Below are positions 9,025 to 26,639 of a stretch of 38,918 nt of DNA, piece by piece. How positions within the stretch are numbered: position 1 is the first letter of the stretch; each line of letters opens with the position of its first letter. Location of the stretch: the NCBI GenBank assembly GCA_964402475.1, contig CAYOCZ010000001.1, forward strand, positions 1 to 38,918, read 5' to 3'. A program made the translations under genes and the position numbers. Below the pieces are notes generated by a model, which saw only the letters and a program-made list of their open reading frames with translations, did not search any database and had not been told where the DNA came from. This stretch comes from an uncultured bacterium (GTDB lineage Bacteria; Hydrothermota; Tepidihabitantia; Tepidihabitantales; Tepidihabitantaceae).

Positions 9025-12000
9025 CTATGACGGGATCGCCTTGAGCGCGGCGTTTATCATCGCCTCGGTCTGCCCGGACTTGAACCCGAGATGGTTGATT
9101 GCGCCCGACGGGCAGATCGCGGCGCAGTTGCCGCAGCCTTTACACAAGGCCTCGTTGATGTGGGATACGGTCCTGTCCGCTCTCTCGACCAGTTCCGGAG
9201 CGTTGTACGGGCATGTGGCCACGCAAAGCCCGCAACCCGCACACACGTTCTCGTCCACCACCGAGGTTGTGGCGCTCGCTTCGTACTTGTCCCTGGAGAG
9301 GATGGTACCTGCCCTTGCTGCCGCGGCCTTTGCCTGGACTATGGCTTCCGGAATGCTCTTGGGCGAATGCGCCAGCCCGGCAAGAAACACGCCTTCGGTC
9401 GCGAAGTCAACCGGCCTCAATTTAACGTGCGCTTCAAGGAAGAAACTGTTTTCGTTCAGCGGGACTTTGAGCATCTGGGAAATGGCCGCGGCATCTTTGT
9501 GCGGGACGATGGCCGGAGCAAGCACGACTAGGTCCGGGCTAACGGTCAGGTCGGTCTCAAGCACCAGATCCCGCGCTTTCACTTTCAGCTTGTCCCCGTC
9601 CTTCTCCACCACCGGCTTCAGTTCCTCGTCATACCTGAGGAATATTATGCCCTTGTCACGCGCACGCTGGTAGTACTCCTCAAGGAATCCATAGGTCCGC
9701 ATATCCCGGTACAGCACGAAGATGTTCACCTTGGGATTGAGTTCCCTGAGCTCAAGAGCATTCTTCACCGCTCCCTGGCAGCACACTCGTGAGCAGTACG
9801 GGTGCTCAGCATCCCTTGACCCGACGCACTGAATCATCACGACGTTCTTGAGCCTGGCCAGCTTGTGGGCCTGTGGGTTCTGCATCCGCTTCTCCAGCTC
9901 GGTCTGGGTGATTACTCTCTCGTCCTCGCCGTACAGGTACTCCATGGGCCTGGATTCCTCGGCGCCGGTCGTAACGATGACAACCCCATGCTCAATCTCG
10001 ATTTGTGCCTTTTGGCTCCCGGCTGTTGGTTCCTGGCCTTTGACCTCAATCGTTGTCTTGTAGTTCCCGATGTAGCCTTTGACATCTTCAATAGCGGCTG
10101 ACTTGTACACCTTGATTCTCGGGTGATTCTCAATCTCCTGGACCAGAGCCTTCAGGTACTGCTGAACATCCTCGCCCTGAATCGTATGGTACAGGTTTCT
10201 CAGGTTCCCGCCCAGTTCACTTTCGCGCTCGACCAGTATGGCGTCGAACCCCTGGTCGGCTAACGACAAGGCGGCCGTCATTCCGGCCAGACCACCGCCG
10301 ATGACCAGTCCTTTCTGAATGACCGGCAGCATCACCGCATACAAGGACTCCAGCAACCCCGCCTTTGCCACCGCCATCTGAACCAGGGTCTTTGCCTTTG
10401 CCGTGGCCTTTTCCGGCACGTGCCCGTGAATCCAGGAACACTGGTCCCGGATGTTCGCCATTTCAAACAGGCACGGGTTCAGGCCGGCTTCGCGCAGGGT
10501 CTCCTGGAACAGCGGCTCGTGGGTTCTGGGCGAGCAGGACGCAACCACGACGCGGTTGAGCCGCTGCTCTTGGATAGTCCTGCTTATTTTCTGCTGGGTA
10601 TCTTGAGAACAGGTAAACAGGTTGTGCTCGCCATAGACGACACCGGGCAGTTTCTTGGCGAATTCAACAACCCCGGGAACGTCCACGACGCTCCCGATAT
10701 TGATGCCGCAGTGACACACGAACACACCGATTCTCGGCGCTTCGCCCCTGACATCCCTTTCCTCGGGGTAGGTTTTGGGTACAATCGCGGTTCCCCGGGC
10801 ATCGGCTACTACGCCTTCGGCCGCGGCCGCGGCGCCCGATGCCTCCATCACGGTCTCCGGTATGTCCTTCGGGCCGCAGGCCGAACCGCATACGAATACC
10901 CCGGGTCGGTTCGTCTCGACCGGTGAGAAAACCGAAGTCTTGAAGAACCGGTACTTGTTCAGCTTTGTGTTCAGCTTATCGGCAAGGACCGCATTGGCCT
11001 TCCTCGGTTCGAGCCCGACCGAAAGCACCACCATGTCGAACTCTTCGCTCAACTGCCGCGGATTGCTCTCCGTGGTGTAATACACAAGCAGGTTCCCGGT
11101 CTCGGGAATCTCCAGGACCTTGCCGACCCGGGACCGAATGAACCGCACCCCATGCTGATCCTTTGCCCGGTTGTAGAACGCGTCGAAATCCTTGCCGTGG
11201 GCCCGGATGTCCATGAAGAATATCGTCGGCTCGACGCCTTTGACGTGCTCCTTGGCGATAATCGCTTCCTTGATCGCGTACATGCAGCAGACCGACGAAC
11301 AGTACTTCCGGTCTTCCATGTCGTCCCGGCTCCCGACGCACTGAATCCAGGCGATTCGCTTCGGTACCTTGCCGTCGTACGGCCGCTGGACGTGGCCGGC
11401 GAAAGGCCCGGAAGCGGCCAGGATGCGCTCGAACTCGATGCTGGTCACGACGTTCCTGCACCTGCCGTACCCGAACTCGTACTTGAGCGAAGGATCGAAC
11501 TTATCCGCGCCGTCCGCGACAATGACCGCGCCGACGTCGAAAGTGAGCTGCTGCTCCTTCTGGTCGAAGTCGATTGCATCCGCTTCGCAGAATTCCTTGC
11601 AAACCTGGCACTCACCGGTCTGCAGGTGGATGCAGTGCTCGGCGTCAATCGTAGCGTAGTTCGGAACCGCCTGCGGGTAGGAGATGTATATCGCCGACCT
11701 CTCCACCAGGCCTTCGTCGAACTCGGACAGAATCGGGACCGGCTTGTTGTGCGTAATCTCCTCGAACTTGATGCACTTGGCCGGACACACGGAAAAGCAC
11801 GCTCCACAGGTCTGGCATACGTCTGACTGGACGTCGAATGCCGGCTGCACCAGCCGCTTATCGCCTCTGCCGGTAAACCCGATTGCTCCTTTCCCCATTC
11901 GGTCGCGGCACATGCGAACGCAGAGCCCGCAGAGCAGACAATCCTCATTCTTCGGCTTGATCCTGGGCTTCCCGACCCCCATCTCCACTGCAAGGCGTTT

Positions 12001-12327
12001 GACCTCTTCGGAATCCGGGCACCGCGCCAGCAGCAGCTCCACCATGATTTTGCGGGTCTGCTTCACACGCGGAGTGTCGGTCTCGACGACAAGCCCGTCC
12101 TGGGCCGGATAGGTGCAGGATGCGTGAATGGATGCCGGGCCGTTGTTTTGGCTCACTTCGACCAGGCAGAGCCGACAGGCACCATAAGCCGGCAGCGCCT
12201 TGTGATAGCACAAGGTGGGGATTTTGATGCCGGCCTTGTTTGCTGCCTGGAGTATCAAGCTGCCCTGTTCGACTTCTACCTGCTTGCCGTTGATTGTCAG
12301 ACTTACCATGCTGTTCTTGTTGCTCAT
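9025..12327 (-). CDS. NuoG/HydA-type N-terminal 2Fe-2S + 4Fe-4S module fused to a tandem HdrA-family flavoprotein; first flavin domain lacks its Rossmann start
   Basis: 1100-aa ORF with an ATGA overlap onto the upstream gene at 12324-12327.
- aa 1-~75 carry a 2Fe-2S pattern C-x10-C-x2-C-x16-C (TLCYHKALPAYGACRLCLVEV...HASC).
- Two 4Fe-4S motifs follow: CLLCGLCVRMC and CQTCGACFSVCP.
- From SEFDEGLVERSAIYISYPQAVPNYATID onward it is collinear with the 1038-aa tandem HdrA (EFERILAASGP, IQCVGSRD, YCSSVCCMYAIKEA, RIGVFVCHCGINIGS).
- The second Rossmann is VIGGGLAGMTAALSLADQG, followed by YCSRVCCQGAVK.
- The C-terminal motifs are CAGCGLCVATCPY / CKGCGNCAAICPSG.
- No GxGxxG occurs before the second domain. 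Confidence 0.9.
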   Translation of the reverse strand: MSNKNSMVSLTINGKQVEVEQGSLILQAANKAGIKIPTLCYHKALPAYGACRLCLVEVSQNNGPASIHASCTYPAQDGLVVETDTPRVKQTRKIMVELLLARCPDSEEVKRLAVEMGVGKPRIKPKNEDCLLCGLCVRMCRDRMGKGAIGFTGRGDKRLVQPAFDVQSDVCQTCGACFSVCPAKCIKFEEITHNKPVPILSEFDEGLVERSAIYISYPQAVPNYATIDAEHCIHLQTGECQVCKEFCEADAIDFDQKEQQLTFDVGAVIVADGADKFDPSLKYEFGYGRCRNVVTSIEFERILAASGPFAGHVQRPYDGKVPKRIAWIQCVGSRDDMEDRKYCSSVCCMYAIKEAIIAKEHVKGVEPTIFFMDIRAHGKDFDAFYNRAKDQHGVRFIRSRVGKVLEIPETGNLLVYYTTESNPRQLSEEFDMVVLSVGLEPRKANAVLADKLNTKLNKYRFFKTSVFSPVETNRPGVFVCGSACGPKDIPETVMEASGAAAAAEGVVADARGTAIVPKTYPEERDVRGEAPRIGVFVCHCGINIGSVVDVPGVVEFAKKLPGVVYGEHNLFTCSQDTQQKISRTIQEQRLNRVVVASCSPRTHEPLFQETLREAGLNPCLFEMANIRDQCSWIHGHVPEKATAKAKTLVQMAVAKAGLLESLYAVMLPVIQKGLVIGGGLAGMTAALSLADQGFDAILVERESELGGNLRNLYHTIQGEDVQQYLKALVQEIENHPRIKVYKSAAIEDVKGYIGNYKTTIEVKGQEPTAGSQKAQIEIEHGVVIVTTGAEESRPMEYLYGEDERVITQTELEKRMQNPQAHKLARLKNVVMIQCVGSRDAEHPYCSRVCCQGAVKNALELRELNPKVNIFVLYRDMRTYGFLEEYYQRARDKGIIFLRYDEELKPVVEKDGDKLKVKARDLVLETDLTVSPDLVVLAPAIVPHKDAAAISQMLKVPLNENSFFLEAHVKLRPVDFATEGVFLAGLAHSPKSIPEAIVQAKAAAARAGTILSRDKYEASATTSVVDENVCAGCGLCVATCPYNAPELVERADRTVSHINEALCKGCGNCAAICPSGAINHLGFKSGQTEAMINAALKAIPS

Positions 12328-12803
12328 CTGTCCTGGCCGTGGTTGGGTGCTTTCCGCATCTCGTCGGTATCCAGCCTGAAGCTGGTTTCGGGGTCCCGAT
12401 GCTCGTATACGAAGTGTGTCTCCGGATGACCGGCAATCAGGGTCGTGAGGGTCTGCTCCATATCGCCAAGAGGCTTGCGGTCGATGTGGCTGTGCCGGAA
12501 GGAAGCCTTCACTCTCGTGCCCTTGCCGACTTCGGAACTGATTTCGATATCACCGCCGGCTTCCCGGGCCGCTTGTGCCAGCAACGGAAGACCCAAGCCT
12601 ACTCTCCGCGTAGTCCTGGTGGTATAGAACGGGTCAAGAACCTTGTCGACGGTCTCCTGGTCCATTCCTCTGCCGTTATCCTCTATCTCAACACTGAGCA
12701 GGTCCTTCTCAACATCCTCGTTGACCCTTATCCTGACTTCTGAGGCCTCTGACTCGACCGAATTCTCGACCACATCAAGAATATGCAAGGACAGATCTTC
12801 CAT
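12324..12803 (-). CDS. stand-alone GHKL (HATPase_c) ATP-binding protein, no DHp/phospho-His domain
   Basis: 159-aa ORF. It has an N-box HILDVVENSVES, G1 DNGRGM and G2 GLGLPL. There is no dimerisation/His-phosphotransfer region. Confidence 0.8.
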   Translation of the reverse strand: MEDLSLHILDVVENSVESEASEVRIRVNEDVEKDLLSVEIEDNGRGMDQETVDKVLDPFYTTRTTRRVGLGLPLLAQAAREAGGDIEISSEVGKGTRVKASFRHSHIDRKPLGDMEQTLTTLIAGHPETHFVYEHRDPETSFRLDTDEMRKAPNHGQDR

Positions 12804-13518
12804 CTTCGTTGTGCAGGGCCTTTCCTATTTCAGTCGCCGTTGCTTCCTTAACGAGGAAAACGGTCGAACTCCTGCCGATATCATCCACGGAATGGGCATC
12901 GGAGGACGCAATCACCGGGAAGCCGAACGCCTGCGGAGAGCCGGGGGGCTCCCTGCCCGGAGAGGCCCTTGCCGATACCTCGACACCGTCCAGAGCCAGT
13001 TCATCGGGGATAAAGCCGAGCTGACCAATAATGCCGAACCGCTCGCGGTCAACGTGGGCCGCAATCGCCACCCCGCCCAGTGAGTGGATCGCGTCCACAA
13101 CCTCGTCAACCGACAACGTGGTTGCCCCGATCAGAAGCCGGTCATTGACGCCGGTCACTTCGTCGTGCTCATCAGCCAGCACCTGCTCTCCGAAAGCCCG
13201 CTCGTCGTTGACCCCGGGCAGATTGTCGTAGATGACGCGCTGGAGCCCGAACAGGCCTTCGTCATCATCAAACAGGACCAGGATGTGTACTTCCTCTTCG
13301 GACGTAACCTCAATCCCGCCGACGACAGCGACTCCTTCCCTGTCCGCCGCCTTTCTCACCGCAACTACGTTTTCTGCAGAGTTGTGGTCGGAAATGCCGA
13401 TTGCATCCAACCCCTGCTGACGCGCCCTGCCTGCTATCCGTCCGGGCAGCATCCCCAGGTCCGCGCAGGGAGAAAGACAGGTGTGGATATGCAGGTCCAT
13501 CCTCAGCTTCTTGAGCAT
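12775..13518 (-). CDS. PHP-domain metal-dependent phosphoesterase
   Basis: Metal-ligand motifs are DLHIHT, ISDHNS, EVHILV, IAAHVDR and ASSDAHS. The track ORF extends to 13581, but that would overlap the upstream DRTGG gene by 53 nt. ATG 13518 (MLKKLRMDLHIH) lies 10 nt after that gene's stop and is preferred. Confidence 0.8.
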   Translation of the reverse strand: MLKKLRMDLHIHTCLSPCADLGMLPGRIAGRARQQGLDAIGISDHNSAENVVAVRKAADREGVAVVGGIEVTSEEEVHILVLFDDDEGLFGLQRVIYDNLPGVNDERAFGEQVLADEHDEVTGVNDRLLIGATTLSVDEVVDAIHSLGGVAIAAHVDRERFGIIGQLGFIPDELALDGVEVSARASPGREPPGSPQAFGFPVIASSDAHSVDDIGRSSTVFLVKEATATEIGKALHNEDGRSVLAYS

Positions 13519-13528
13519 CCCGCCTGCG

Positions 13529-13876
13529 TCACTTCGTGTTCCCGCGGATGCCGATTTCGCAGAGTCTTCCCGCAATCTCAAAGGTCTGCAGGCCGGTCAG
13601 CATGACCGGGATGTCCTCCTGCTCCGCTTTTGCCAGGACCTCCTGCTCCGCTTTCCTTCCGTTCACGATGATGATTCCGGAAAGCTCCTTCAGGGAAGCC
13701 ACGGCAATGATGTTCTGATGGACCTGCAGCGTGACCCAGACATTGCCCTCCCGGGAATTGGCCATCACGTCGCTGAGCAGGTCGCTCGCATAACCGCCGC
13801 TTACTTCTCTGTCGAGGCCGCACCGCGGGGTGGCCGACTCCAGATGGAGTCTTTCCACTATGTCCTTGAGTTTCAT
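13529..13876 (-). CDS. DRTGG-domain protein (short stand-alone form)
   Basis: 115-aa ORF. GGYASDLLSDVMANSREGNVWVTLQVHQNIIAVASL...IPVMLT matches the short DRTGG-family proteins commonly annotated in NuoEF/HydABC-type operons. It has an ATGA overlap with the upstream gene at 13873-13876. Confidence 0.7.
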   Translation of the reverse strand: MKLKDIVERLHLESATPRCGLDREVSGGYASDLLSDVMANSREGNVWVTLQVHQNIIAVASLKELSGIIIVNGRKAEQEVLAKAEQEDIPVMLTGLQTFEIAGRLCEIGIRGNTK

Positions 13877-14832
13877 GATGCCTCGTTCTGCCGCCGAACG
13901 TCCTTGTCAGCCTCGTTTCCGTTAAGGTAGATTACGACCTCGAGATTCGTTCCCTTGCCGATTTGCGAGGCCAGACTCATTTCGTCCGCGCAGTTCCTGA
14001 TATTGCACAAGCCCATTCCGGCCCCGAATCCCATCTCCCGTATCCAGTCAGGGGCAGTAGAAAAACTGGGCTGCATCGCCTGCTCGGTGTCGGGGATTCC
14101 GGGTCCGTTGTCCGATGCGCCGATCGTAATCCGGTCCGAGCATACCGAGACCGTGAGTCTGCCTCCATCGGTGAACACTATGATGTTGATTTCGGCCTCA
14201 AACGCGACAATCGCTATGCGGCGGACTATTTCGGGTCGGATACCGAGCCGATGCAGCGTTTTCTTGAGCCTGCTTGCCGATTGCCCGGCACGGTCGAAAT
14301 CCTTACCGGCTATTTCGTACTTGAGGACCAGGTTCGTTTTGTCCGCGACGATGTCCTCGAAGATGTGACTGGCCCGATAGTGGTGAATCTCCTCCTCGTG
14401 GTACTCGACCTCCAGCTTTCTCAGCAGGCACTTGATGATGTTGCCCTTGGTAATAATCCCGACCAGCTTCTGTCCGTTCCGTTCGATCACCGGGAAGCGG
14501 CCAAACCCGTACTGCTCGAATTTCCTGACGGCATGAACCAGCGGTTCGTCGGCATACAGCGTTTCCGCATCCCTCGTCATCCTGCGCTCGATGATAACGT
14601 CCATTTCTCCCTGGGCCAGACACCTGATGTAGTCCTCGATGCTGATAAGCCCGACGACTCTGCCTTCATCTACTACCGGAACCCCGGAAATGTGCTTCTC
14701 ACGCATCACATCTCTCAGGTTATGAATCGCCTGCTTCGGACTCACCGTGACGACGTCGGCGATCATCGCGTCCCTGACCCGGAGCTCATAAGTCAGCTCC
14801 TGAATCTTAGTGAAGTTCCTATCTTTGGTCAT
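13873..14832 (-). CDS. CBS-pair + GHKL ATPase protein (anti-sigma/serine-kinase-like)
   Basis: 319-aa ORF. It has two CBS motifs (VRDAMIADVVTVSP...HISGVPVVDEGRVVGLISIEDY; ...FGRFPVIERNGQKLVGIITKGNI). The C-terminal GHKL fold shows DNGPGIP and GFGAGMGL. Confidence 0.8.
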   Translation of the reverse strand: MTKDRNFTKIQELTYELRVRDAMIADVVTVSPKQAIHNLRDVMREKHISGVPVVDEGRVVGLISIEDYIRCLAQGEMDVIIERRMTRDAETLYADEPLVHAVRKFEQYGFGRFPVIERNGQKLVGIITKGNIIKCLLRKLEVEYHEEEIHHYRASHIFEDIVADKTNLVLKYEIAGKDFDRAGQSASRLKKTLHRLGIRPEIVRRIAIVAFEAEINIIVFTDGGRLTVSVCSDRITIGASDNGPGIPDTEQAMQPSFSTAPDWIREMGFGAGMGLCNIRNCADEMSLASQIGKGTNLEVVIYLNGNEADKDVRRQNEAS

Positions 14833-15196
14833 TCCTCTTGCTGATGTCCAGATAGCCCAGACCCGTGAGCCCGTTCTTGAACAGCCTGCCGCAACTCACG
14901 AACATCGGCAGGCGGGTAGTCATCAGGACTATGCCCTTCTGCTCGGCCAGCTTGAGCGTCTTTTCGTCCGGCTCCTTGCCGCGGATGAAGCAAATCGCGT
15001 GGATGTCGGCCACGTTGGCCGTGTAGATGACCTGACGGTTCGCCAGTCCTGTCAGGAGGATTGCGTCGGGTTTGGCGAAGGCCAGGACGTCGCTCATCAG
15101 GTCGGAAGCGCAGCCGATTTTCACTTCGGTCTTGAGACTGTCCTGACCGACCAGGACTTCCGCCTCGATGGTCTTGCTGATTTCTTCGAGCGTCAT
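14819..15196 (-). CDS. DRTGG-domain protein (second copy)
   Basis: 125-aa ORF, paralogous to 13529..13876 (CASDLMSDVLAFAKPDAILLTGLANRQVIYTANV...GIVLMTT). It begins 4 nt after the NuoF-like stop. Confidence 0.7.
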   Translation of the reverse strand: MTLEEISKTIEAEVLVGQDSLKTEVKIGCASDLMSDVLAFAKPDAILLTGLANRQVIYTANVADIHAICFIRGKEPDEKTLKLAEQKGIVLMTTRLPMFVSCGRLFKNGLTGLGYLDISKRNDQR

Positions 15197-15200
15197 CCTG

Positions 15201-17060
15201 CTATTTCTTCCATTTCGCCTTTTGCTCTCCGGCCTCTTTCTTCATTGGCTTTAATGGTGGCTTTCCTGTCGTGACCAGTATCGCATCGAACTTGCAGACA
15301 TCATAACAGACCCCGCACTTGATGCATTTGTCCTGGTTTATCGCGTGCGGCGTTTTCTTCGTCCCGGTGACAGCATGGGAAGGGCAGTTCTTTGCGCACA
15401 GCGTGCAACCGGTGCATTTGTCCTTATCCACTTCATATCTAATCAGCGCCCTACACACCTTGGCCGGGCACTTCTTGTCCCTGATATGGGCGACGTACTC
15501 GTCTCTGAAATGGCGCAGGGCGCTCAGCACGGGATTGGGCGCGGTCTTGCCCAACCCGCACAGGGATGCCTCCTTGGTGGCCTCACCCAGCTCCTCCAAG
15601 AGTTCGATGTCACCTTCCTTCCCATTTCCCTCGCAGATGTTCGTCAGGATTTCATGCATCGCGGCGAGGCCTTCGCGGCAGGAAGTGCACCTTCCGCAGG
15701 ATTCGTCTTTCGTGAATCCGATGAAGTACTTGGCGATATCAACCATGCAACTGTCCTCGTCCATCACGATCATCCCACCCGACCCCATGATCGCGCCCGC
15801 CTCCTGCAATCGCTCGTAGTCCACCGGCAGGTCGAGCATGCTCTTCGGGATAACACCGCCGGACGGACCGCCGGTTTGAACGGCTTTGAACTCCCTTCCG
15901 TTCGGAATCCCGCCCCCGATGTCATAGACGATCCGACGCAGGGTTATCCCCATCGGTACTTCCACCAGCCCGGCGTTGTTGATATTCCCGGCCAAGGAGA
16001 ACACCTTGGTGCCTTTGCTCTTCTCTGTCCCGATTGCGGCAAACCACTCTGCCCCGAAGTTGATAATCCTCGGCAAGTTCGTCAGGGTTTCTACATTGTT
16101 GATGACCGTGGGTTTCCCGAACACCCCTCGCTGGACCGGGAAGGGGGGCTTCTGGGTAGGTTCTGCCGGCCGGCCTTCAATCGAGTGAATCAGTGAAGTC
16201 TCCTCCCCGCAGACGAACGCACCGGCCCCACGGAATATCTCGACGTCGAAGTCAAAGCCCGAACCGAATATGTCCTTTCCGAGCAATCCGTACTCCATGG
16301 CCTGACCGGTCGCACTGATCAGCCTCTTGATCGCCAGCGGGTATTCAATCCTGATATACACGTAGCCTTTGCTCGCTCCGATTGCGTAGGCGGCAATCAG
16401 CATCCCCTCAATCAGTGAATGGGGATCAGCCTCAATTATCGACCTGTCCATGAAAGCTCCCGGGTCACCCTCGTCAGCATTGCAGATAAGGTACTTGGGC
16501 GTATTCGGGTTGCTCCGGCAGAACTCCCATTTCCTGCCGGTCGGAAAACCGGCACCACCACGTCCCCTGAGCCCCGAGTCCTTTATCTCCCGGACGACTT
16601 CCTCAGGACTCATATCCTTCAGCACCTTTGCCAGGGCTTTGTACCCGTCCCTGGCGATGTACTCATCTATCTGGTCCGGGTCGATTATCCCCCTGTTCCA
16701 GAGCGCAATCAGTCGCTGGTCACGGTAGAAAGGAACGTCGTGCAGCTTCTCAATCGGGTACAGGGTCTCAGGATGGACGTACATCAGGGACTTCACCGGC
16801 CGGCCCTTGAGCAGGTGCTCCTCAACCAGATGCGGGATGTCTTCTTCTTTCAGGAACTGATAGACCACGTCGTCCGGCTGGACAATCAGCGTCGGTCCCT
16901 TGGTGCAAAGCCAACTGCTCCCGGTAAGGACAACCTGGACTTCATCCTCCAGGTGGTGCTTCCTGATTTCCTCCTCGAGCCGCTTCTTGATTGACAGCGC
17001 CCCGACCGAAACACACATGGTGCAAGTGCAGAGCATTACGTTGGTTCGGTATACCTTCAT
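15201..17060 (-). CDS. NuoF/HydB-like NAD(P)H-FMN subunit with N-terminal thioredoxin-like 2Fe-2S domain and C-terminal 2x[4Fe-4S]
   Basis: Motifs are GLRGRGGAGFPTGRKWEF (FMN/NADH site), ESCGRCTSCREG (N3-type cluster), and CTGCTLCAKNCP / CIKCGVCYDVC. The track ORF starts at ATG 17132. The first 24 aa (MSLCRRTARSLRLLG...) do not look domain-like, so ATG 17060 (MKVYRTNVMLCTC...) is preferred. Confidence 0.9.
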   Translation of the reverse strand: MKVYRTNVMLCTCTMCVSVGALSIKKRLEEEIRKHHLEDEVQVVLTGSSWLCTKGPTLIVQPDDVVYQFLKEEDIPHLVEEHLLKGRPVKSLMYVHPETLYPIEKLHDVPFYRDQRLIALWNRGIIDPDQIDEYIARDGYKALAKVLKDMSPEEVVREIKDSGLRGRGGAGFPTGRKWEFCRSNPNTPKYLICNADEGDPGAFMDRSIIEADPHSLIEGMLIAAYAIGASKGYVYIRIEYPLAIKRLISATGQAMEYGLLGKDIFGSGFDFDVEIFRGAGAFVCGEETSLIHSIEGRPAEPTQKPPFPVQRGVFGKPTVINNVETLTNLPRIINFGAEWFAAIGTEKSKGTKVFSLAGNINNAGLVEVPMGITLRRIVYDIGGGIPNGREFKAVQTGGPSGGVIPKSMLDLPVDYERLQEAGAIMGSGGMIVMDEDSCMVDIAKYFIGFTKDESCGRCTSCREGLAAMHEILTNICEGNGKEGDIELLEELGEATKEASLCGLGKTAPNPVLSALRHFRDEYVAHIRDKKCPAKVCRALIRYEVDKDKCTGCTLCAKNCPSHAVTGTKKTPHAINQDKCIKCGVCYDVCKFDAILVTTGKPPLKPMKKEAGEQKAKWKK

Positions 17061-17199
17061 TCCAATTCCGATTGTCGAATGGCGACTGCCGAGTAACCGA
17101 AGGGAACGTGCCGTCCGACGGCACAACGACATGATGCCTCAGCGGTCTCACATGCTGCGTTTTGCCTTCTGCAATCCGACCTCTGCCTTCTGTTTTTCC

Positions 17200-17586
17200 T
17201 CACGGTACTCTTTCACTCCCGAAAGCCAGCGCGTATTCCTTGACGATCTCCCCTGAAAGGACGTGCCTGACGAATATTTCCTTCGCCTTGTCCGGAGTCA
17301 CGTCCACGTATTTCACCGGCGGCTGGCCCTGGACTTCGACCGTTATCATCGGTTCCCGGCTGCACAGGCCGGCGCAGCTCGAAGGAATCAGAATGACGTC
17401 CTTGACGTCCCGTTCTTCTATCTCAGTCATCAACGCGCTCATCACGGCCCGCGCTCCGGCTGCTATCCCGCAGGTGCCCATATGAACAATGACTTTTGCC
17501 CGGCTGGTCCCTTCACGGAGAGAAATCGTCCTCTTCACCTTCTCGGTTATTCTCGCCAGGTCTTCAGGCCTCAACTTCGGCATCAC
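17200..17586 (-). CDS. thioredoxin-like [2Fe-2S] ferredoxin (HydD-like small subunit)
   Basis: 128-aa [17 protein letters not shown] ... [11 protein letters not shown] is the pattern of thioredoxin-like 2Fe-2S ferredoxins found with NuoEF-type modules. Confidence 0.8.
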
Positions 17587-18517
17587 CCGCCTCCTTGTAG
17601 TGCTTGAGCAACTTCGGGATATGGGACAGCCGGAAATGGCCGTGCATGTCCTCGTTCACCACCACAACCGGAGCCTGGCCGCAGCACCCGAAACAGGATA
17701 TGGTCTCAAGCCCGAACATCAGGTTCTTGGTCGTGTTTCCCACCCTGATGCCGAGAGCTCTCTCAAACGCCTCAAGAATCCGGTTCCCGCCCTTGATGTA
17801 GCAGGCCGTCCCCATGCAGACATTGATGGTGTATTTCCCTCTCGGTTTCAGGCTGAACGCATTGTAGAAAGTGGCTACCTGGTAAATCAGGCTCAGAGGC
17901 ATGTCAAGCTCCTCGGAGATGTAACGCAGCACGTATTCCGGGAGATAGGAATAGCTGATGTTGATGTCGTGCAGAACCGGCAGCAGGGCGCCTTCCCTGT
18001 TCTTGTGCTCCTCGATAATCCGCCGCATTTTCGCCAAATCGTCGGGCTTGAGCTTCACCTCGACCTTCTCCTGGTCAAGGTAGACCGCCTTTGTTACCGG
18101 GCAGTTCTCCACGCATAACCCGCAGCCGGTGCACTTGTCCTCGTTGACATAGCGGGGCTTCTTCTTCACTGTCACCACGAAATTGCCCGGGGTCCCGGTC
18201 AACTGCTCAAGTTCGGCGTTCGTGATGAGCTCGATGTTCGGATGCCTTCCGCAATCAACCAGCTTCGGCGACACGATGCACATCGCGCAATCGTTTGTCG
18301 GGAACGTCTTGTCCAACTGCGCCATGGTCCCGCCGATGGCCGGGCCCGACTCAACCAGGTAGACCTTGAACCCGGAATTGGCCAAATCCAGCGAAGACTG
18401 AATTCCGGCTATCCCGGCACCGATGACAAGCACGGCGCCAACGGGCCGACTTCCGCTTTGGGCAACCGCCGATTCATGCCGATTCACGCCGACGGAAGGA
18501 CTGAATTGCTCGTTCAT
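17564..18517 (-). CDS. fusion of the HdrA N-terminal Rossmann/FAD segment (with first ferredoxin-insert motif) to a NuoE/HydC-type 2Fe-2S domain
   Basis: 317-aa ORF. aa 29-141 ([21 protein letters not shown]...[17 protein letters not shown]...[20 protein letters not shown]) align without gaps to aa 10-122 of the 1038-aa HdrA. The C-terminal half is NuoE-like ([39 protein letters not shown]). Confidence 0.85.
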
Positions 18518-23007: not shown

Positions 23008-23526
23008 TCAGTCTTTCGTGTCCGAAGACCTGACCGCCTTCACCAGTTTCCTGGCAGGACCAAGCCTCTTCACATCCTCGGTGACCCTGGTGACAACCTG
23101 GGCGAACTTCTCGCCTTCGCCGGCCGACACCCAGGAGAATTGAACCCGGCCCGGCTCCAGACCCATGAATTCCAGAACCGTCTTCAATACGGCGAACTTC
23201 CTGCGAGCCACGTAATTCCCCGAGATGTAATGGCAGTCCCCGGGGTGGCAGCCTGAAACCAGAACTCCGTCGAATCCGTTCTGAAGGCACTTGAGAATGA
23301 ATATCGGGTTCACCCTTCCGGAGCAGGGAACCCTGACCGCCCGGATATTGGGAGGGTACTGAATCCTTGAAACCCCGGCAAGGTCGGCCCCGGCGTAGGA
23401 GCACCAGTTGCACAGGAATGCCAGTATCCTGGGTTGCCAGGAATTCCGGGTCTCTGTCCGTTCTGCTCTTTTGTCATCGGCTTTGTGTTCCTGGTGGCTT
23501 CGTGTTGAGTCCATCCGTTCTTTCAT
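23008..23526 (-). CDS. MvhD/FlxD-like [2Fe-2S] protein (copy 1)
   Basis: It has LCNWCSYAGADLAG, VPCSGRV and GCHPGDCHY. The start is taken at ATG 23526, which forms an ATGA overlap with the stop of the tandem HdrA (23523-23525). The track ORF to 23631 lies inside that gene. Confidence 0.85.
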   Translation of the reverse strand: MKERMDSTRSHQEHKADDKRAERTETRNSWQPRILAFLCNWCSYAGADLAGVSRIQYPPNIRAVRVPCSGRVNPIFILKCLQNGFDGVLVSGCHPGDCHYISGNYVARRKFAVLKTVLEFMGLEPGRVQFSWVSAGEGEKFAQVVTRVTEDVKRLGPARKLVKAVRSSDTKD

Positions 23527-26500
23527 GTCGCTATCGCGCTGATCGCTTCGAAAATCTGGTCGTCGGTGAAACCCTTCAGGTTGACGGCGCCGCACCGGCA
23601 GGATGCCGCACAGGCCCCACACCCCTTGCACAGCGCTTCGTTCACTTCGGCAACCGTTTTTACAACCTTCGACGGCATGACCTTGTCCTTCAATTCGATT
23701 GCGGCATAGGCACAGGCTTCAACACAAACACCACAACCGGTGCATCGGTCGGGATTGACCCAGGATACGGTGCCCTCCGCCTCGATGGTCTTCTTGCTCA
23801 GCACGGCCAGGGCCCTTGCCGCCGCGGCCTTTGCCTGGGTGATTGACTCCTCGATGTTCTTCGGGGAATGAGCCAGCCCGCACATGTAGACCCCATCTGT
23901 GGCGAAGTCAACCGGCCTCAGCTTCATGTGGGCCTCAAGGAAGAATCCCTCTTTGTTCAATGGCACCTTGAGCATCTTTGCCAGGATTTCGTTCCCTTCC
24001 GGAGCATCCATCGCAGCCGAAAGCACAACAAGGTCGGCGTCAACTACGACCGTCTTGTCAAGCAGGAAATCCACCAGCTTGATTTTCAGCCTACTGTCCG
24101 GGTCGTTCGGGTCGCCGGGTTCGAGTTCGGGCTTGTGGTCCAAGTCGTATCTCTCGAATATCACTCCGAGGTCCCTCGCCTGGCCGTAATACTTCTCCGC
24201 CAGGCCATAGGTCCTCATGTCCCGGTACAGGACGTACACCTCGGTACCGGAATGCCGTTTCTTGATAAGCGTGGCGTTCTTCACCGCCTGGCCGCAGCAT
24301 ACCCGGCTGCAGTAAAGCCGTTCGCCCTCCCGGGAACCAACGCACTGGATCATAACCACGGTCTTGCATCGCGGAAGGTCGTCAATCCGTTTCTCAAGCT
24401 CAAGCTGGGTAATCACCCGGCTGTTCTTCCCGTAGAAATACTCGACCGGCCGCGATTCCCGGGCCCCGGTGGCGACAACCACAACGCCATGCTCATACTC
24501 GACCACAGATTCCGGGTCTTTATCCATTCCATGCTGCGGCCCTTGACTTTGTGTTTTTGTCTTTGTGTCAGGCTCTCCATCCCGGACTTCGGCGAGGGTT
24601 TTGAAGTGCCCGATGTAACCTTCGATGTTCCGCAGTCTGGCATTCCGGTAGACCGTGATGAGCTCATTCTCCTCCACTCTACCGATAGTCCTGCGCAGGA
24701 GTTCCACGGGGTCTGCACCGCTCAACGTGCTGTGGATGCCGGCCAGGTTGCCGCCGAGTTCGCGTTCTTTTTCCAAAAGACAGACTTCGTACCCGGCGTC
24801 GGCAATTGCCAGTGCCGCAGTCATGCCCGACAGCCCACCGCCGACGACCAGGGCCTTCGGGTTAATTTCAATCGGCAGCCTCCGAAGCGGCACCAGGTTC
24901 CTCGCTTTGGCAATGCCCATTTCCACCAAGTCTTTGACCTTGGCGGTTGCCGATTCGGGTTCGTGCATGTGCGCCCAGCTGCACTGGTCCCTGATGTTCG
25001 CCATCTCGAACAAGTACTCATTCAGACCGGCCTCTCTGAGCGTTTCCCGGAACAGCGGCTCGTGAGTCCTCGGCGTGCACGCGGCCACGAGAACCCGGTT
25101 CAGGTTGTGTTCCCGGACCCGGTCCTTAATCGTGTTCAGGCAGTCTTGGGAACAAGCGTACATGACGTCCTCGGTGCACTCGACGTTGGGCAGGGTCGCG
25201 GCGAACGCGGCAACGTCCTTGACGTCCACCACCCCGGCGATGTTGACCCCGCAGTGACACACAAACACCCCGATTCGCGGCCGCTCGCCCACAACGTCCC
25301 TTTCCGCAGGAAACGTCTTCTTCGACACCTTGTCCTGCCTTTCGAGCGCCAGCAGGCCGGCGCAGCCAGCCACCGCCCCGGAGGCGGACATCACCGATTC
25401 CGGGATGTCCTTGGGTCCGTTCGCCGCGCCGCAGGCGAAGATGCCCGGTCTCGTGGTATTGAGCGGCTCAAACGGAACCGACCGGCAGAACCCGTATTCA
25501 TCCAGCTTGACGTCGGCCTTGTCCGACAGCTCGGCCATGCTCCCGCGGGGCTCCAGGCCGACCGAAAGCACGACCAGGTCGAAAGTCTCGCTGCCCCGCC
25601 TGCCGTACTCCCCGGTGAAGTGAAGCATCAGGTTGCCGTCGTCGGCCGGCGTGACGCGGGCGACTCGCGCCCTTGTGAACTTGACGCCGAACTGCGACTG
25701 GGCCCGTTCGTAGTATTTGTCGAAGTCCTTGCCGAATGCCCTTATGTCCATGAAGAACACGGTCGGCGAGACTCCCTTGCTGTGTTCCTTTGCTATGACC
25801 GCTTCTTTGATAGCGTACATGCAGCAGACCGAGCTGCAGTAATCGTGCTTCCGTTCTATGTCCCTCGAGCCGACGCACTGAACAAAGGCAATTTTGTGCG
25901 GCTCCTTCCCGTCCGACGGTCGCACGACGTGTCCCCTCTGCGGTCCGCTTGCCGAGAGCATCCGTTCAAACTCGATGGATGTCACCACGTTCGGGTACGC
26001 CTTGTACCCGTACTGGCCGTACCCGACCGGATTGTGCGGGTCAACCCCGGTTGCCAGGACGACCGCGCCGCAATTCAGGTTCACAAACCTGTCCTCGTCC
26101 TTGAAGTTGATTGCGTCCGCCGCGCAGGCTTTCTCGCACAGCCTGCACACGCCTTTGGTGAGATACAGGCAGTGCGCCGCGTCAATGACGTAGTTCGACG
26201 GGATGCTCTGGGCGAAGTACCGGTATATCGCCTTTCGCTGCCTGAGTTCCATGTCGAACTCGTCAAGGACCTTGACCGGGCACTTCTCGGCGCAGAGCCC
26301 GCAGCCGACGCACCTGTCCGGGTCAACGTAGCGGGCGTGCTCTCTGATCCGGCACGTGAAATCGCCGGCCGCGCCTTCCACCGAAACGAGCGACGAGCAG
26401 ACGTGGAGCGTAATACCGGGATGCCGTGCGCACTCGCTCATCTTCGGCGAGAGGATGCAAATAGAACAGTCGTTGGTGGGGAACGTCTTGTCCAGTTGGG

Positions 26501-26639
26501 GCATTCTGCCGCCGATTGAAGGGGTCTCCTCCAACAGGTGGACGTCGGCCCCCATCTCCGCAAGGTCGAGTGCTGCCTGGATACCGGCTATCCCGGCGCC
26601 GACTACGAGTACCGACTTGCTGGGAATCTCCACGCTCAA
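23523..26639 (-). CDS. tandem (two-flavin) HdrA-family protein, BamE-like / fused QmoA+QmoB-like
   Basis: 1038-aa ORF with a TTG 26639 or GTG 26633 start.
- First half: [34 protein letters not shown], inserted ferredoxin CVGCGLCAEKCPV / CRLCEKACAADAI, then VQCVGSRD and YCSSVCCMYAIKEA.
- Second half: HdrA N-terminal-domain motif RIGVFVCHCGVNIAG, a second Rossmann LVVGGGLSGMTAALAIADAG, then YCSRVCCGQAVK.
- C-terminal motifs: CTGCGVCVEACAY / CKGCGACAASCRCG. Confidence 0.9.
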   Translation of the reverse strand: MSVEIPSKSVLVVGAGIAGIQAALDLAEMGADVHLLEETPSIGGRMPQLDKTFPTNDCSICILSPKMSECARHPGITLHVCSSLVSVEGAAGDFTCRIREHARYVDPDRCVGCGLCAEKCPVKVLDEFDMELRQRKAIYRYFAQSIPSNYVIDAAHCLYLTKGVCRLCEKACAADAINFKDEDRFVNLNCGAVVLATGVDPHNPVGYGQYGYKAYPNVVTSIEFERMLSASGPQRGHVVRPSDGKEPHKIAFVQCVGSRDIERKHDYCSSVCCMYAIKEAVIAKEHSKGVSPTVFFMDIRAFGKDFDKYYERAQSQFGVKFTRARVARVTPADDGNLMLHFTGEYGRRGSETFDLVVLSVGLEPRGSMAELSDKADVKLDEYGFCRSVPFEPLNTTRPGIFACGAANGPKDIPESVMSASGAVAGCAGLLALERQDKVSKKTFPAERDVVGERPRIGVFVCHCGVNIAGVVDVKDVAAFAATLPNVECTEDVMYACSQDCLNTIKDRVREHNLNRVLVAACTPRTHEPLFRETLREAGLNEYLFEMANIRDQCSWAHMHEPESATAKVKDLVEMGIAKARNLVPLRRLPIEINPKALVVGGGLSGMTAALAIADAGYEVCLLEKERELGGNLAGIHSTLSGADPVELLRRTIGRVEENELITVYRNARLRNIEGYIGHFKTLAEVRDGEPDTKTKTQSQGPQHGMDKDPESVVEYEHGVVVVATGARESRPVEYFYGKNSRVITQLELEKRIDDLPRCKTVVMIQCVGSREGERLYCSRVCCGQAVKNATLIKKRHSGTEVYVLYRDMRTYGLAEKYYGQARDLGVIFERYDLDHKPELEPGDPNDPDSRLKIKLVDFLLDKTVVVDADLVVLSAAMDAPEGNEILAKMLKVPLNKEGFFLEAHMKLRPVDFATDGVYMCGLAHSPKNIEESITQAKAAAARALAVLSKKTIEAEGTVSWVNPDRCTGCGVCVEACAYAAIELKDKVMPSKVVKTVAEVNEALCKGCGACAASCRCGAVNLKGFTDDQIFEAISAIAT

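Follow-up and report, generated by a model that had tools for sequence, protein, structure and literature searches.

Complementary Halves of an HdrA Flavin Domain on a NuoE-like and a NuoG-like Subunit

Introduction

A Bfu-type module coupled to a tandem HdrA has a precedent in class II benzoyl-CoA reductase (BCRII), Bam[(BC)2DEFGHI]2 or "Bam-Bfu" (bioRxiv 10.64898/2026.04.10.717634; Schut et al. 2022, PMC9304861). In this enzyme, BamG is NuoE-like, BamH is NuoF-like and BamI is NuoG-N-like with three clusters, and the bifurcating FAD is held by the N-terminal TrxR unit of the tandem HdrA BamE (bioRxiv 10.64898/2026.04.10.717634; PMC9304861). BamGHI are functionally coupled to BamE, for whose second TrxR domain a mainly structural role has been proposed (bioRxiv 10.64898/2026.04.10.717634); a domain of the HdrA type can thus be retained even if its flavin has no catalytic part. 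In PMC9304861, none of the Bfu members described has its catalytic domain split across BfuC and BfuA. Related gene arrangements have been noted as "hdrA_N-unknown-hdrA_C" in Deltaproteobacteria (Zhang et al. 2006, PMC1794560) and as nuoEFG-mvhD-hdrA clusters in Desulfotignum phosphitoxidans (PMC4046663). Here, we describe an operon in which one HdrA unit is divided between a BfuC-like and a BfuA-like protein, as had been proposed in a sequence-only reading of the window, i.e., the whole stretch of 38,918 nucleotides that was analysed.

Results

The operon and the comparator used to define the breakpoints (the 1038-aa tandem HdrA, which lies outside the split enzyme) comprise the following features.

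17564..18517, reverse strand: HdrA-N::BfuC (NuoE/HydC-like) fusion, 317 aa (Pfam, BLASTP, PDB sequence search)
18095..18433, reverse strand: HdrA-N fragment, aa 29-141 of the 317-aa fusion (5odc_A match, homologue conservation)
18038..18094, reverse strand: linker of ~19 aa (aa 142-160), from HdrA-N to the NuoE four-helix bundle
17567..18037, reverse strand: BfuC/NuoE/HydC domain, aa 161-317, thioredoxin-like [2Fe-2S] site (PF01257, 8a6t_C)
17200..17586, reverse strand: small thioredoxin-like [2Fe-2S] protein, 128 aa (weak PF01257 match)
15201..17132, reverse strand: BfuB (NuoF/HydB-like), FMN/NADH subunit (Pfam, 7t2r_B and 7q4v_B matches)
12324..15196, reverse strand: accessory block of five genes (Pfam)
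14819-15196: accessory DRTGG gene (Pfam)
13873-14832: accessory CBS + HATPase gene (Pfam)
13529-13876: second accessory DRTGG gene (Pfam)
12775-13581: accessory PHP gene (Pfam)
12324-12803: accessory HATPase gene (Pfam)
9025..12327, reverse strand: BfuA::deltaN-HdrA(unit 1)::HdrA(unit 2) fusion, 1100 aa (Pfam, BLASTP, PDB search, 19-orthologue alignment)
11767..12327, reverse strand: BfuA/NuoG-N module, aa 1-187 of the 1100-aa protein (9mqx_A, Foldseek)
10768..11727, reverse strand: HdrA unit 1 without its N-terminus, aa 201-520 (5odc_A, orthologues, AF2)
9028..10743, reverse strand: HdrA unit 2, aa 529-1100 (5odc_A, Pfam)
23523..26639, reverse strand: unsplit tandem HdrA paralogue, 1038 aa, flx-type cluster

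An HdrD-like gene at 7634-8833 is convergent to this operon.

The two fusion proteins

The 317-aa protein aligns over aa 25-157 with aa 6-135 of the 1038-aa HdrA (BLASTP, 51% identity, E 1e-43), and the first gap does not occur before aa 144, in agreement with the gapless match of aa 29-141 that had been claimed. FAD_oxidored/Pyr_redox_2 was found at aa 29-79, Fer4 at aa 123-141 and 2Fe-2S_thioredx at aa 165-308 (PF01257, E 4e-46). Consistently, aa 29-142 match aa 146-259 of Methanothermococcus thermolithotrophicus HdrA (5odc_A), and aa 162-310 match aa 15-163 of HydC (8a6t_C, E 6e-43), the NuoE/HydC-type domain to which the chain was expected to switch. The HdrA-N fragment represents the first ~115 residues of the HdrA flavin domain, with the GxGxxG beta-alpha-beta (Rossmann) unit (G33, G35, G38), the NDCxxC motif ([11 protein letters not shown]77xxC80) and the first CxxCxxCxxxCP motif of the inserted ferredoxin (C129-C139). 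From the 5odc_A match, C80 corresponds to HdrA Cys197, a ligand of the partner's N-domain cluster (PMC9012536). The same architecture is present in >120 homologous 90%-identity clusters.

The 1100-aa protein is collinear with the 1038-aa HdrA up to the C-terminus (51% identity over 968 columns), also as claimed, and true HdrA homology starts at aa ~197 ("PILSEFDEGL" versus "VLDEFDMEL"). In place of the GxGxxG segment of unit 1, aa 1-187 form a complete NuoG-N/BfuA-type module with Fer2_4 at aa 6-85; aa 8-187 match aa 5-184 of the 247-aa "NuoG-like" subunit of the bifurcating WOR-Bfu (9mqx_A, E 2e-32; Foldseek TM 0.69). The cysteines of its [2Fe-2S] cluster (C40, C51, C54, C71) and two [4Fe-4S] clusters (C130-C140, C171-C181) are invariant or almost invariant among 19 aligned orthologues, and the His-ligated cluster motif is absent from aa 1-187. 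BLASTP paired C171-C181 with the first ferredoxin motif of HdrA; this pairing was rejected as motif similarity only, because BfuA homology covers that motif.

Unit 1, which matches 5odc_A aa 245-500, contains Lys353 and three motifs: the second of the inserted ferredoxin (C232, C240, C243, C247), that of the CxGSRD...YCSxxCC cluster and the C-terminal one for FAD (G481...PKDIP490). By the same match, K353 corresponds to HdrA Lys409, and K353 is probably equivalent to BamE Lys280. Unit 2 consists of an N-terminal cluster domain, a complete TrxR-like FAD domain that lacks an inserted ferredoxin, and a C-terminal 2x[4Fe-4S] ferredoxin (5odc_A aa 2-237 and aa 471-642); it has no Cys at the position equivalent to HdrA Cys197 (BLASTP, orthologue alignment). 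A scan of the 1100-aa protein for GxGxx[GA] returned only GKGAIG at 145, which sits in the BfuA ferredoxin domain and is not kept in homologues, and GGGLAG at 677, the Rossmann unit of unit 2. The scan and the orthologue alignment therefore place no cryptic dinucleotide-binding motif in the truncated unit, and the claim of a missing Rossmann segment stands.

Complementary breakpoints

HdrA-N homology stops at CPV (aa 141 of the 317-aa protein, aa 122 of the 1038-aa paralogue), and HdrA-C homology begins at aa ~197 of the 1100-aa protein (aa ~124 of the paralogue). The two halves are thus complementary within ~3 residues, with no segment duplicated and none lost. The inserted 2x[4Fe-4S] ferredoxin is cut in two as well. 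Each cluster of a clostridial-type 2x[4Fe-4S] fold draws ligands from both motifs. Since the BfuA module is complete by itself, the 1100-aa protein has no partner in cis for its second ferredoxin motif. By sequence correspondence, the cut further places the predicted ligand of the partner's N-domain cluster, C80, on the NuoE fusion. In a separate class of tandem HdrAs, a GltD/NfnB-like NAD(P)H module is inserted in frame between the same two Cys motifs; this loop therefore tolerates, and serves for, the wiring-in of pyridine-nucleotide modules.

The HdrA-N::NuoE protein could instead complement or regulate another HdrA, e.g., one of the neighbouring Flx/Qmo-type HdrAs, as five or more other HdrA-type genes lie in the window (including 23523-26639, 29965-31899, 34746-36371 and 36364-37683). 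This is quite improbable, as each of the window paralogues with a TrxR-N segment has its own GxGxxG, the 1100-aa protein is the only N-truncated HdrA in the window and has an exactly fitting breakpoint, and the operon linkage is strict in other genomes, many of which are without the neighbouring clusters.

Recurrence in other genomes

Both halves are present in all 28 loci with enough flanking DNA to be evaluated (the window, 21 genome loci, 3 loci from metagenomes and 3 additional gene contexts), always in the order HdrA-N, NuoE, NuoF, BfuA::HdrA-C. A NuoE fusion lacking an N-truncated HdrA partner was never seen (21/21 genome loci, 3/3 metagenome loci, the three contexts and the window). The layout recurs among many anaerobes, both bacterial and archaeal. 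The operon is conserved in at least eight bacterial phyla (hosts in Cloacimonadota, Spirochaetota, Latescibacterota, Bacillota, Desulfobacterota, Ignavibacteriota, Acidobacteriota, Planctomycetota and Chloroflexota) and three archaeal lineages (Altiarchaeales, Thermoplasmata and one other archaeon). HdrA-N is a free gene of ~124-144 aa in some lineages, in some of which a TGA (Sec) codon followed by a conserved hairpin occupies the C80 position, and at one locus it is fused to an HdrA N-domain instead; wherever either is the case, the partner is truncated at the same place. The split forms were not recovered as one clade in a crude NJ tree, so a single cassette-insertion origin is unsupported.

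Mis-assembly, a frameshift or a chimeric contig might be suspected, given that the window is a metagenome contig (ENA ERZ27245787 k141_419578) and that a related locus is visibly frameshifted. Nevertheless, both fusion junctions lie within long intact ORFs, 6 contigs from different samples encode the identical protein, and the architecture recurs in dozens of independent assemblies from many phyla, which makes the chance of an artefact practically negligible.

Functional constraint on the two halves

HdrA-N is more conserved than the NuoE domain to which it is attached, in mean pairwise identity (74% vs 58%) and in invariant columns (42% vs 15%; 30 homologues aligned for HdrA-N). The linker is poorly conserved (40% mean pairwise identity) and has pLDDT <50 in the AF2 model. 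In unit 1, K353, G481/P486/D488/I489/P490, the second ferredoxin motif and the CxGSRD...YCSxxCC motif are invariant among the 19 orthologues. Unit 1 is modelled with pLDDT 78-97 (Foldseek versus 5odc_A, 341 columns, rmsd 4.3). Even without the missing piece, AF2 models aa 1-540 as a monomer with confidence (pLDDT 87, pTM 0.74), i.e., the prediction shows no sign of an "incomplete" domain, a result that counts neither way by itself.

These data bear on whether the split is vestigial, with HdrA-N a leftover or docking tag on NuoE, unit 1 a flavin-free scaffold or wire, and FAD on unit 2 only. The confident model of the truncated unit would fit such a state, as would low AF2 confidence at aa 63-81 and 123-151 of the 317-aa fusion and the mainly structural role proposed for the second TrxR domain of BamE (bioRxiv 10.64898/2026.04.10.717634). 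It is nonetheless unlikely, since HdrA-N is the best-conserved part of the fusion, its invariant residues include the GxGxxG glycines, E56, [14 protein letters not shown] and all four ferredoxin-motif Cys, the FAD-contact residues of the C-terminal piece (K353, GxxxxPKDIP) are invariant, some lineages spend a selenocysteine on HdrA-N, and HdrA-N is retained as a separate gene where unfused. The earlier reading had left open whether the first FAD domain is non-functional or completed in trans; HdrA-N conservation, survival as a free gene and the Sec codon favour the latter.

Operon partners

BfuB, the FMN/NADH subunit, has an N-terminal Trx-like domain and a C-terminal 2x[4Fe-4S] domain (Pfam). 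Bifurcating BfuB/HydB proteins of known structure are homologous to it over the full length (7t2r_B aa 1-594 to aa 25-618, E 1e-246; HydB 7q4v_B was also matched). The real start of BfuB is probably Met25, near position 17060. The small Trx-like [2Fe-2S] gene is present in many, but not all, homologous operons, with a conserved 127-aa gene in the same position at 11 loci, and the accessory block lies between bfuB and the BfuA::HdrA gene at ten. DRTGG, CBS-HATPase and PHP genes and a small Trx-like [2Fe-2S] protein are known from hydrogenase-type operons.

Discussion

Complementary breakpoints, lack of a cryptic GxGxxG, conserved co-occurrence and the higher conservation of HdrA-N than NuoE are best explained by completion in trans: HdrA unit 1 is probably built from two chains, uniting the Bfu module and the tandem HdrA in one complex. 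We infer the following model of its physical assembly, FAD occupancy, internal wiring, external substrates and direction of electron flow. The products of 17564-18517, 17200-17586, 15201-17132 and 9025-12327 would most likely form one soluble complex, in which BfuC, BfuB and BfuA, as an NADH- and ferredoxin-dependent module of the HydBC/Bfu type, are covalently joined to the tandem HdrA. Unit 1 would have its counterpart in TrxR1/B-FAD, the bifurcating unit of BamE. The BfuC fusion (aa 29-141) would contribute the Rossmann unit that binds ADP in the FAD site, the CxxC pair, whose second Cys would be the fourth ligand of the N-domain [4Fe-4S] cluster, and the first of the two Cys motifs in the inserted ferredoxin. 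The BfuA fusion (aa ~197-520) would contribute the second ferredoxin motif, the TrxR-domain cluster, the C-terminal FAD motif and Lys353 at flavin N5, such that the two chains would have in common the FAD, the two clusters of the inserted ferredoxin and one more cluster. In topological terms, the Bfu trimer would then occupy the loop that separates the two Cys motifs of the inserted ferredoxin, and the genes are ordered as if a bfuCBA cassette lay within an hdrA reading frame. Given the short tethers, BfuA may make contact with the inserted ferredoxin and not with the C-terminal one. Between NADH plus ferredoxin, at the FMN site of Bfu, and the FAD of HdrA, electrons would move in two bifurcation or confurcation stages in series. 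The layout thus suggests a two-stage bifurcating enzyme that is hard-wired. That one complex would have two bifurcation-capable flavin sites, as earlier proposed, is supported as a reading but not as a novelty, given the BCRII precedent.

For the split itself, our literature search found no description of an HdrA divided across BfuC and BfuA subunits, as the sequence-only reading had supposed. Interrupted hdrA genes or nuoEFG-mvhD-hdrA linkage were seen in PMC1794560 and PMC4046663, but the inserted genes are not named as bfuCBA there, and a complementary NuoE/NuoG-N fusion or bisected FAD and ferredoxin domains are not mentioned.

The enzyme shares with HdrA of MvhAGD-HdrABC (5ODC) the N-domain cluster, the TrxR-like FAD domain, the inserted and C-terminal ferredoxins and the Cys197 and Lys409 equivalents, and the N-domain/Cys197 complementarity between its units obeys the tandem-HdrA rule (ANME HdrA3/4; PMC9012536). 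Unlike in 5ODC and tandem HdrAs, two polypeptides share one unit, with the division falling midway through the inserted ferredoxin, and, unlike the 5ODC system, the operon has no HdrBC genes. BfuB, BfuC and the short BfuA match type 2 Bfu enzymes end to end (WOR-Bfu 9mqx, NiFe-HydABCSL 7t2r, FeFe-HydABC 7q4v, 8a6t), whereas the "third substrate" module is here a tandem HdrA fused to BfuA, and BfuC also bears the N-terminal piece of that HdrA. With BCRII, it has in common the HydBC/Bfu-type NADH and ferredoxin module coupled to a fused tandem HdrA and, in most orthologous operons, a co-encoded MvhD-like adaptor (BamF in BCRII); in the window, no mvhD follows the 1100-aa gene. The tungsten BamBC catalytic subunits are absent here, as is a BamD-like gene from the window operon. 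In BCRII, BamG, BamI and BamE are separate and complete, whereas here the BamI-like part is fused to the BamE-like part and the ~120 N-terminal HdrA residues reside on the BamG-like subunit.

Domain organization of the split-HdrA operon

Every relevant gene of the split-HdrA operon is carried on the minus strand, and the core is transcribed in the following order:

17564-18517, minus strand, HdrA-N::NuoE fusion, 317 aa, first in transcription order
17200-17586, minus strand, thioredoxin-like [2Fe-2S] protein, 128 aa, second
15201-17132, minus strand, NuoF/HydB-like protein (BfuB), 643 aa, third
12324-15196, minus strand, five accessory genes (DRTGG, CBS-HATPase, DRTGG, PHP, HATPase), between the BfuB gene and the 1100-aa gene
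9025-12327, minus strand, BfuA::HdrA fusion, 1100 aa, last of the core

A promoter and terminator scan of positions 8500-20500 returned nothing above shuffled expectation. The domain map was drawn from Pfam and from comparison with solved structures. Structure-sequence comparison places aa 29-142 of the 317-aa protein on aa 146-259 of HdrA in PDB 5ODC, a segment that begins the thioredoxin-reductase-like (TrxR) FAD domain and also holds Cys motif 1 of the inserted ferredoxin. After about 19 linker residues comes a HydC/NuoE domain (PF01257, E 4e-46; HydC structure 8a6t_C, E 6e-43), and the AF2 model shows the helices of the BfuC four-helix bundle at aa 158-217. The 643-aa protein matches bifurcating BfuB/HydB end to end (aa 25-618 on aa 1-594 of 7t2r_B, E 1e-246), with an FMN/NADH domain, NADH_4Fe-4S, an N-terminal Trx-like [2Fe-2S] domain and a C-terminal 2x[4Fe-4S] domain recognized by Pfam. 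The 1100-aa protein opens with a complete short BfuA/NuoG-N module, of which aa 8-187 match aa 5-184 of the NuoG-like 9mqx_A (E 2e-32; Foldseek TM 0.69). This module contains a Fer2_4 domain (Pfam) with one [2Fe-2S] and two [4Fe-4S] motifs, and on inspection of the sequence it lacks the His-ligated cluster motif, as does type 2 BfuA. It is followed by HdrA residues 245-500 (5ODC numbering) and by a second HdrA unit with an N-terminal cluster domain, a complete FAD domain and a C-terminal ferredoxin.

HdrA is cut between the two Cys motifs of its inserted ferredoxin

The sequence-only reading had claimed that one HdrA is split between the NuoE fusion and a 2Fe-2S::HdrA fusion, and alignments to the unsplit 1038-aa tandem paralogue (23523-26639, minus strand) confirm it. 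In BLASTP comparisons, aa 25-157 of the 317-aa protein align to this paralogue at 51% identity (E 1e-43), gapless up to aa 144, and the 1100-aa protein is collinear with it from aa ~197 to the C-terminus, also at 51% identity. The homology of the N-piece ends at "CPV", aa 122 of the paralogue, and that of the C-piece starts again at "(P)ILSEFDEGL", aa ~124; thus, the cut is clean and complementary. The GxGxxG of unit 2 is present in cis (GGGLAG at 677 of the 1100-aa protein), and that of unit 1 is found only on the 317-aa protein (GAGIAG at 33). A cryptic dinucleotide-binding motif in the 1100-aa protein had been named as an observation that would speak against the split; a GxGxx[GA] scan found no GxGxxG in aa 188-670. 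The one candidate considered, GKGAIG at 145, lies within the BfuA Fe-S domain and is not conserved.

The cut takes away more than the Rossmann unit. When mapped on 5ODC, it falls between both Cys motifs of the inserted 2x[4Fe-4S] ferredoxin, leaving motif 1 (C129, C132, C135, C139) on the 317-aa protein and motif 2 (C232, C240, C243, C247) on the 1100-aa protein, all eight cysteines being invariant. In 2x[4Fe-4S] ferredoxin folds the ligands of each cluster come from both Cys motifs, and therefore both clusters would need both polypeptides. As judged from the sequences, the two-motif ferredoxin would be complete only if the 317-aa and 1100-aa chains assemble. Alternatively, the ferredoxin could be completed in cis by the second BfuA Cys motif, a pairing that BLASTP offers; this is ruled out because the homology of BfuA to 9mqx_A and HydA spans that motif.

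In the alignment to 5odc_A, the lysine at flavin N5 (HdrA Lys409) is matched by Lys353 of the 1100-aa protein. By position, Lys353 probably corresponds to Lys280 at the bifurcating FAD of BamE in class II benzoyl-CoA reductase (BCRII; numbering from bioRxiv 10.64898/2026.04.10.717634). On the 317-aa protein, C80 falls on HdrA Cys197. This cysteine, in the TrxR domain of one HdrA, is a ligand of the N-domain cluster in the partner HdrA (PMC9012536). In tandem HdrAs, one unit has an N-domain without Cys197 and the other unit the reverse (PMC9012536). Unit 2 of the 1100-aa protein has an N-domain at aa 529-665 (5odc aa 2-130) and no Cys at the Cys197 position, and the Cys197 equivalent for its N-domain cluster sits on the NuoE fusion, as C80. 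With Lys353 and C80 matching these residues, the split unit bears the hallmarks of a bifurcating flavin site.

Both pieces are conserved

Conservation was computed over 30 diverse HdrA-N::NuoE fusions.

Table. Conservation along the HdrA-N::NuoE fusion (30 fusions)
HdrA-N (aa 29-141): mean pairwise identity 74%; invariant columns 42%
Linker (aa 142-160): mean pairwise identity 40%; invariant columns 6%
NuoE domain (aa 161-308): mean pairwise identity 58%; invariant columns 15%

Invariant residues of HdrA-N include G33, G35, G38 and the four ferredoxin cysteines. Across 19 orthologues of the 1100-aa protein, motif 2 of the ferredoxin, the Cys cluster of the TrxR domain, K353 and the FAD motif near the C-terminus (G481, P486, D488, I489, P490) are invariant. 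Such conservation of both pieces does not fit a decaying remnant.

The AF2 model of the 317-aa protein is confident for the NuoE domain and the beta-alpha-beta unit, and pLDDT falls below 50 at aa 63-81 and 123-151, the most conserved segments. This fits, and does not prove, a need of these segments for cofactors or a partner. Residues 1-540 of the 1100-aa protein gave a confident model (pLDDT 87, pTM 0.74) that matches HdrA 5odc_A (341 columns, rmsd 4.3) and BfuA 9mqx_A. These monomer models are descriptive and add little.

The two fusions occur together across anaerobic lineages

The HdrA-N::NuoE architecture is found in more than 120 clusters at 90% identity, with members of about 290-325 aa that are 57-99% identical. 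A forward scan of one genome per species gave 25 loci with HdrA-N beside NuoE. The lineages represented include Cloacimonadota, Spirochaetota, Latescibacterota, Eubacteriales, Desulfobacterota, Melioribacter, Acidobacteriota, Sedimentisphaerales, Altiarchaeales, Thermoplasmata and another archaeon. It had been asked whether the NuoE fusion regularly occurs without its truncated partner; in none of the 21 loci with enough downstream DNA does it do so, a BfuA::deltaN-HdrA gene following NuoF in 21/21. In the opposite direction, a metagenome scan that started from the 1100-aa family returned 14 BfuA::deltaN-HdrA loci, and HdrA-N is present in all three of these that have enough upstream DNA. Three additional gene contexts agree, with HdrA-N and BfuA::deltaN-HdrA together. 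The gene order is constant: HdrA-N, NuoE, (Trx), NuoF, (accessory genes), BfuA::HdrA-C and usually MvhD. The mvhD gene is the last in most orthologous operons, and an HdrD-like gene is present in some.

Variants of the split differ in how the N-piece is carried. HdrA-N is a free gene of about 125 aa in four Desulfobacterota genome loci and one metagenome locus (L018:9718-10100, L019:10001-10380, L047:10001-10380, L073:10013-10380 and L088:1411-1800; L numbers denote homologous loci, with coordinates within the locus). In these genes an in-frame TGA stands exactly where C80 (Cys197), the second cysteine of NDCxxC, would be encoded, and a conserved hairpin, CTGGTCGAGGTCGGCCGG, is found 18 nt downstream of the TGA, as expected for a bacterial SECIS. 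They are probably selenoproteins of about 125 aa that gene callers have missed, and HdrA is a known selenoprotein family (PMC1794560). A free Cys-type HdrA-N gene (124-144 aa) forms a family on 23 contigs and in a Chloroflexota MAG; its partner is a BfuA::HdrA-C protein of 510-532 aa, and HdrA unit 2 is a separate gene. In a Thermoplasmata MAG (L022:244-5141), an HdrA N-terminal cluster domain stands in front of HdrA-N::NuoE (417 aa) and the partner is BfuA with a single HdrA C-piece (592 aa), so that here the split at this point affects a canonical single HdrA. Across the variants, HdrA is cut at one position and the C-piece is always fused to BfuA.

The BfuB genes also vary. At five loci (L003:7038-10088, L004:11337-14426, L007:10810-13989, L012:11314-14382 and L082:4023-7082) they encode about 1020-1060 aa, with a GltD/NfnB-like Fer4_20 + Pyr_redox_2 module replacing or extending the C-terminus, which suggests, from domain content, an extra NADPH site in some members.

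Genomic neighbourhood

The window operon is preceded by HdrC-like and FrhB-like genes, by a cluster of flxABCD type that includes the unsplit tandem HdrA, and by an [NiFe] hydrogenase of Mvh type accompanied by another HdrA. No mvhD adjoins the 1100-aa gene in the window; MvhD genes are located at 23008-23631 and 29567-29968. The MvhD-like adaptor of BCRII is BamF, and its HdrD-like subunit is BamD. A convergent gene at 7634-8833 (plus strand), which encodes an HdrD/GlpC-like protein of 399 aa with Fer4_8 and two CCG domains, stops about 190 nt short of where the 1100-aa gene ends; its product may be a partner of the split enzyme, in the manner of BamD in BCRII. Elsewhere, the companions of the operon are MvhD, HdrD-like proteins, a ferredoxin::NarI-like membrane protein or a formate-dehydrogenase-like pair.

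Several further observations concern these surroundings. Directly upstream of HdrA-N::NuoE, a gene for a protein of about 385 aa is found at L004:8797-10011, L006:8827-9981, L008:8815-9984, L010:8857-10005, L013:8818-9984 and L016:7694-8860. An N-terminal 4Fe-4S dicluster was present in the three proteins scanned (L004, L006, L013), together with a NarI-like (nitrate reductase gamma) membrane domain in L006; such a protein could link the complex to the quinone pool. At L159:9715-10203 and L161:11222-11746, gene calling gives two short ORFs (67-79 and 75 aa) for the MvhD (FlpD) gene downstream of the split HdrA, perhaps owing to a selenocysteine codon such as the one reported in BamF; next come genes for a molybdopterin (formate-dehydrogenase-like) protein and an FrhB-like protein. 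Within the window, a module at 32471-37683 (minus strand) encodes a QmoA-like HdrA (36364-37683, 439 aa), a QmoB-like HdrA (34746-36371, 541 aa) and two FlxB/C-like Fe-S proteins (33562-34836, 32471-33565); the 1038-aa unsplit tandem HdrA resembles a QmoA-like and a QmoB-like protein of this kind joined together. An HdrC-like (Fer4_8) ORF of 228 aa (19729-20415, minus strand) overlaps the start of the FrhB-like gene; its true start is probably later, the public gene call on the identical contig being 155 aa (L164:322-789). The left end of the window is unrelated to the redox cluster, with CitMHS-EIIA transporters and a GNAT gene; the transporters (1053-3047 and 3504-5450, minus strand) are tandem paralogues in which a PTS EIIA-2 domain is fused to a CitMHS permease.

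Proposed assembly and electron wiring

Completion in trans of HdrA unit 1 by the NuoE fusion is the best-supported reading, and we consider it likely. The 317-, 128-, 643- and 1100-aa proteins would then form one complex, in which the Bfu trimer is placed, topologically, inside the inter-motif loop of the HdrA inserted ferredoxin. A tether of about 19 residues would join HdrA-N to the helical bundle at the N-terminus of BfuC, and one of about 18 residues would run from the last cluster motif of BfuA to the second ferredoxin half. In BCRII, a BfuC-type helical bundle touches the BfuA-like BamI (bioRxiv 10.64898/2026.04.10.717634). The gene order is what a bfuCBA cassette inside an hdrA reading frame would give, and an origin by such an insertion is possible. 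In a crude neighbour-joining tree of the HdrA-C segment, split forms are interleaved with unsplit and GltD-insert forms; no single event is shown, and we do not use the tree as evidence.

Electrons could take either of two routes. In the first, BfuA would pass them to the C-terminal ferredoxin, then to MvhD and to FAD, as in BCRII (bioRxiv 10.64898/2026.04.10.717634). In the second, BfuA would connect directly to the inserted ferredoxin, as hinted at by the short tethers, and both bifurcating centres would be wired otherwise than in BCRII. It is possible, if rather doubtful, that the Bfu trimer is in effect one very large domain inserted in the loop of the HdrA inserted ferredoxin, the low-potential exit of canonical HdrA, so that the low-potential branch of the HdrA FAD runs directly to BfuA and the Bfu FMN site and the MvhD/C-terminal-ferredoxin entry is left free for a separate mid-potential donor; this would be a widespread, uncharacterised serial bifurcating class with a flavin site built from two subunits, maybe of cassette origin. 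The donor might be a hydrogenase, formate dehydrogenase or FrhB-type module, all of which occur beside split-HdrA operons.

The same loop is occupied in another group of proteins. Tandem HdrAs of about 1560 aa carry an in-frame GltD/NfnB-like module (Fer4_20 + Pyr_redox_2, ~430 aa) at about 50 loci (for example L040:9968-14653, plus strand; the others are among L024-L158). As in the Bfu split, the module separates Cys motif 1 of the inserted ferredoxin from Cys motif 2, but its position is about 30 residues further downstream. The GltD-like insert is a second, independent way to wire an NAD(P)H module into this loop, which has thus been used twice to attach a pyridine-nucleotide module.

Comparison with known systems

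By flavin-based electron bifurcation, anaerobes can drive reactions that lie below the redox window usual in biology. It is a current question how such modules are combined with one another, and the first Bfu-HdrA structure, that of BCRII, dates only from 2026. In the present family, spread across many anaerobic phyla and archaea, the two kinds of module are joined so closely that the BfuC and BfuA fusions would have in common the flavin site of HdrA, two or three Fe-S clusters and perhaps a selenocysteine. If confirmed, it would be a new and abundant type of Bfu ("Hdr-Bfu"), a natural split-protein system to test which HdrA elements bifurcation needs, and a case in which NAD(P)H modules dock at the loop between the motifs of the inserted ferredoxin, where the GltD-like insertion also lies. 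Annotation, at present "NADH:ubiquinone oxidoreductase subunit E" or "2Fe-2S-binding protein", would also be corrected.

Earlier work noted nuoEFG-mvhD-hdrA clusters in a genome paper (PMC4046663) and an "hdrA_N-unknown-hdrA_C" arrangement (PMC1794560). In the literature covered, including the Bfu classification (PMC9304861), the ANME HdrA survey (PMC9012536), an archaeal fusion/fission survey and an HdrA domain-architecture preprint, we found no description of a bifurcating HdrA unit divided between BfuC and BfuA fusions, nor of the wide distribution and the free and Sec-containing variants of the split HdrA; an earlier mention is possible.

From sequence comparison, the HdrA-family features appear to be all present across the pair (GxGxxG FAD domain, N5 Lys and C-terminal FAD motif, inserted ferredoxin, Cys197 completion), as are those of the Bfu family (BfuB, BfuC, and BfuA with N-terminal [2Fe-2S] and [4Fe-4S]). 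No AOR-type (BamB/BamC tungsten) domain was found among the Pfam-scanned ORFs of 307-34836 or in the orthologous loci mapped by BLAST. That BCRII couples a HydBC/Bfu module to a tandem HdrA was proposed in PMC9304861 and seen in its structure (bioRxiv 10.64898/2026.04.10.717634). Thus, the idea of two bifurcating flavin sites in one complex, put forward in the sequence-only reading, is not new. The arrangement differs: in BCRII, BamE, BamG and BamI are separate and complete, whereas here the BamI-like and BamE-like proteins are fused and the N-terminus of BamE is carried on the BamG-like protein.
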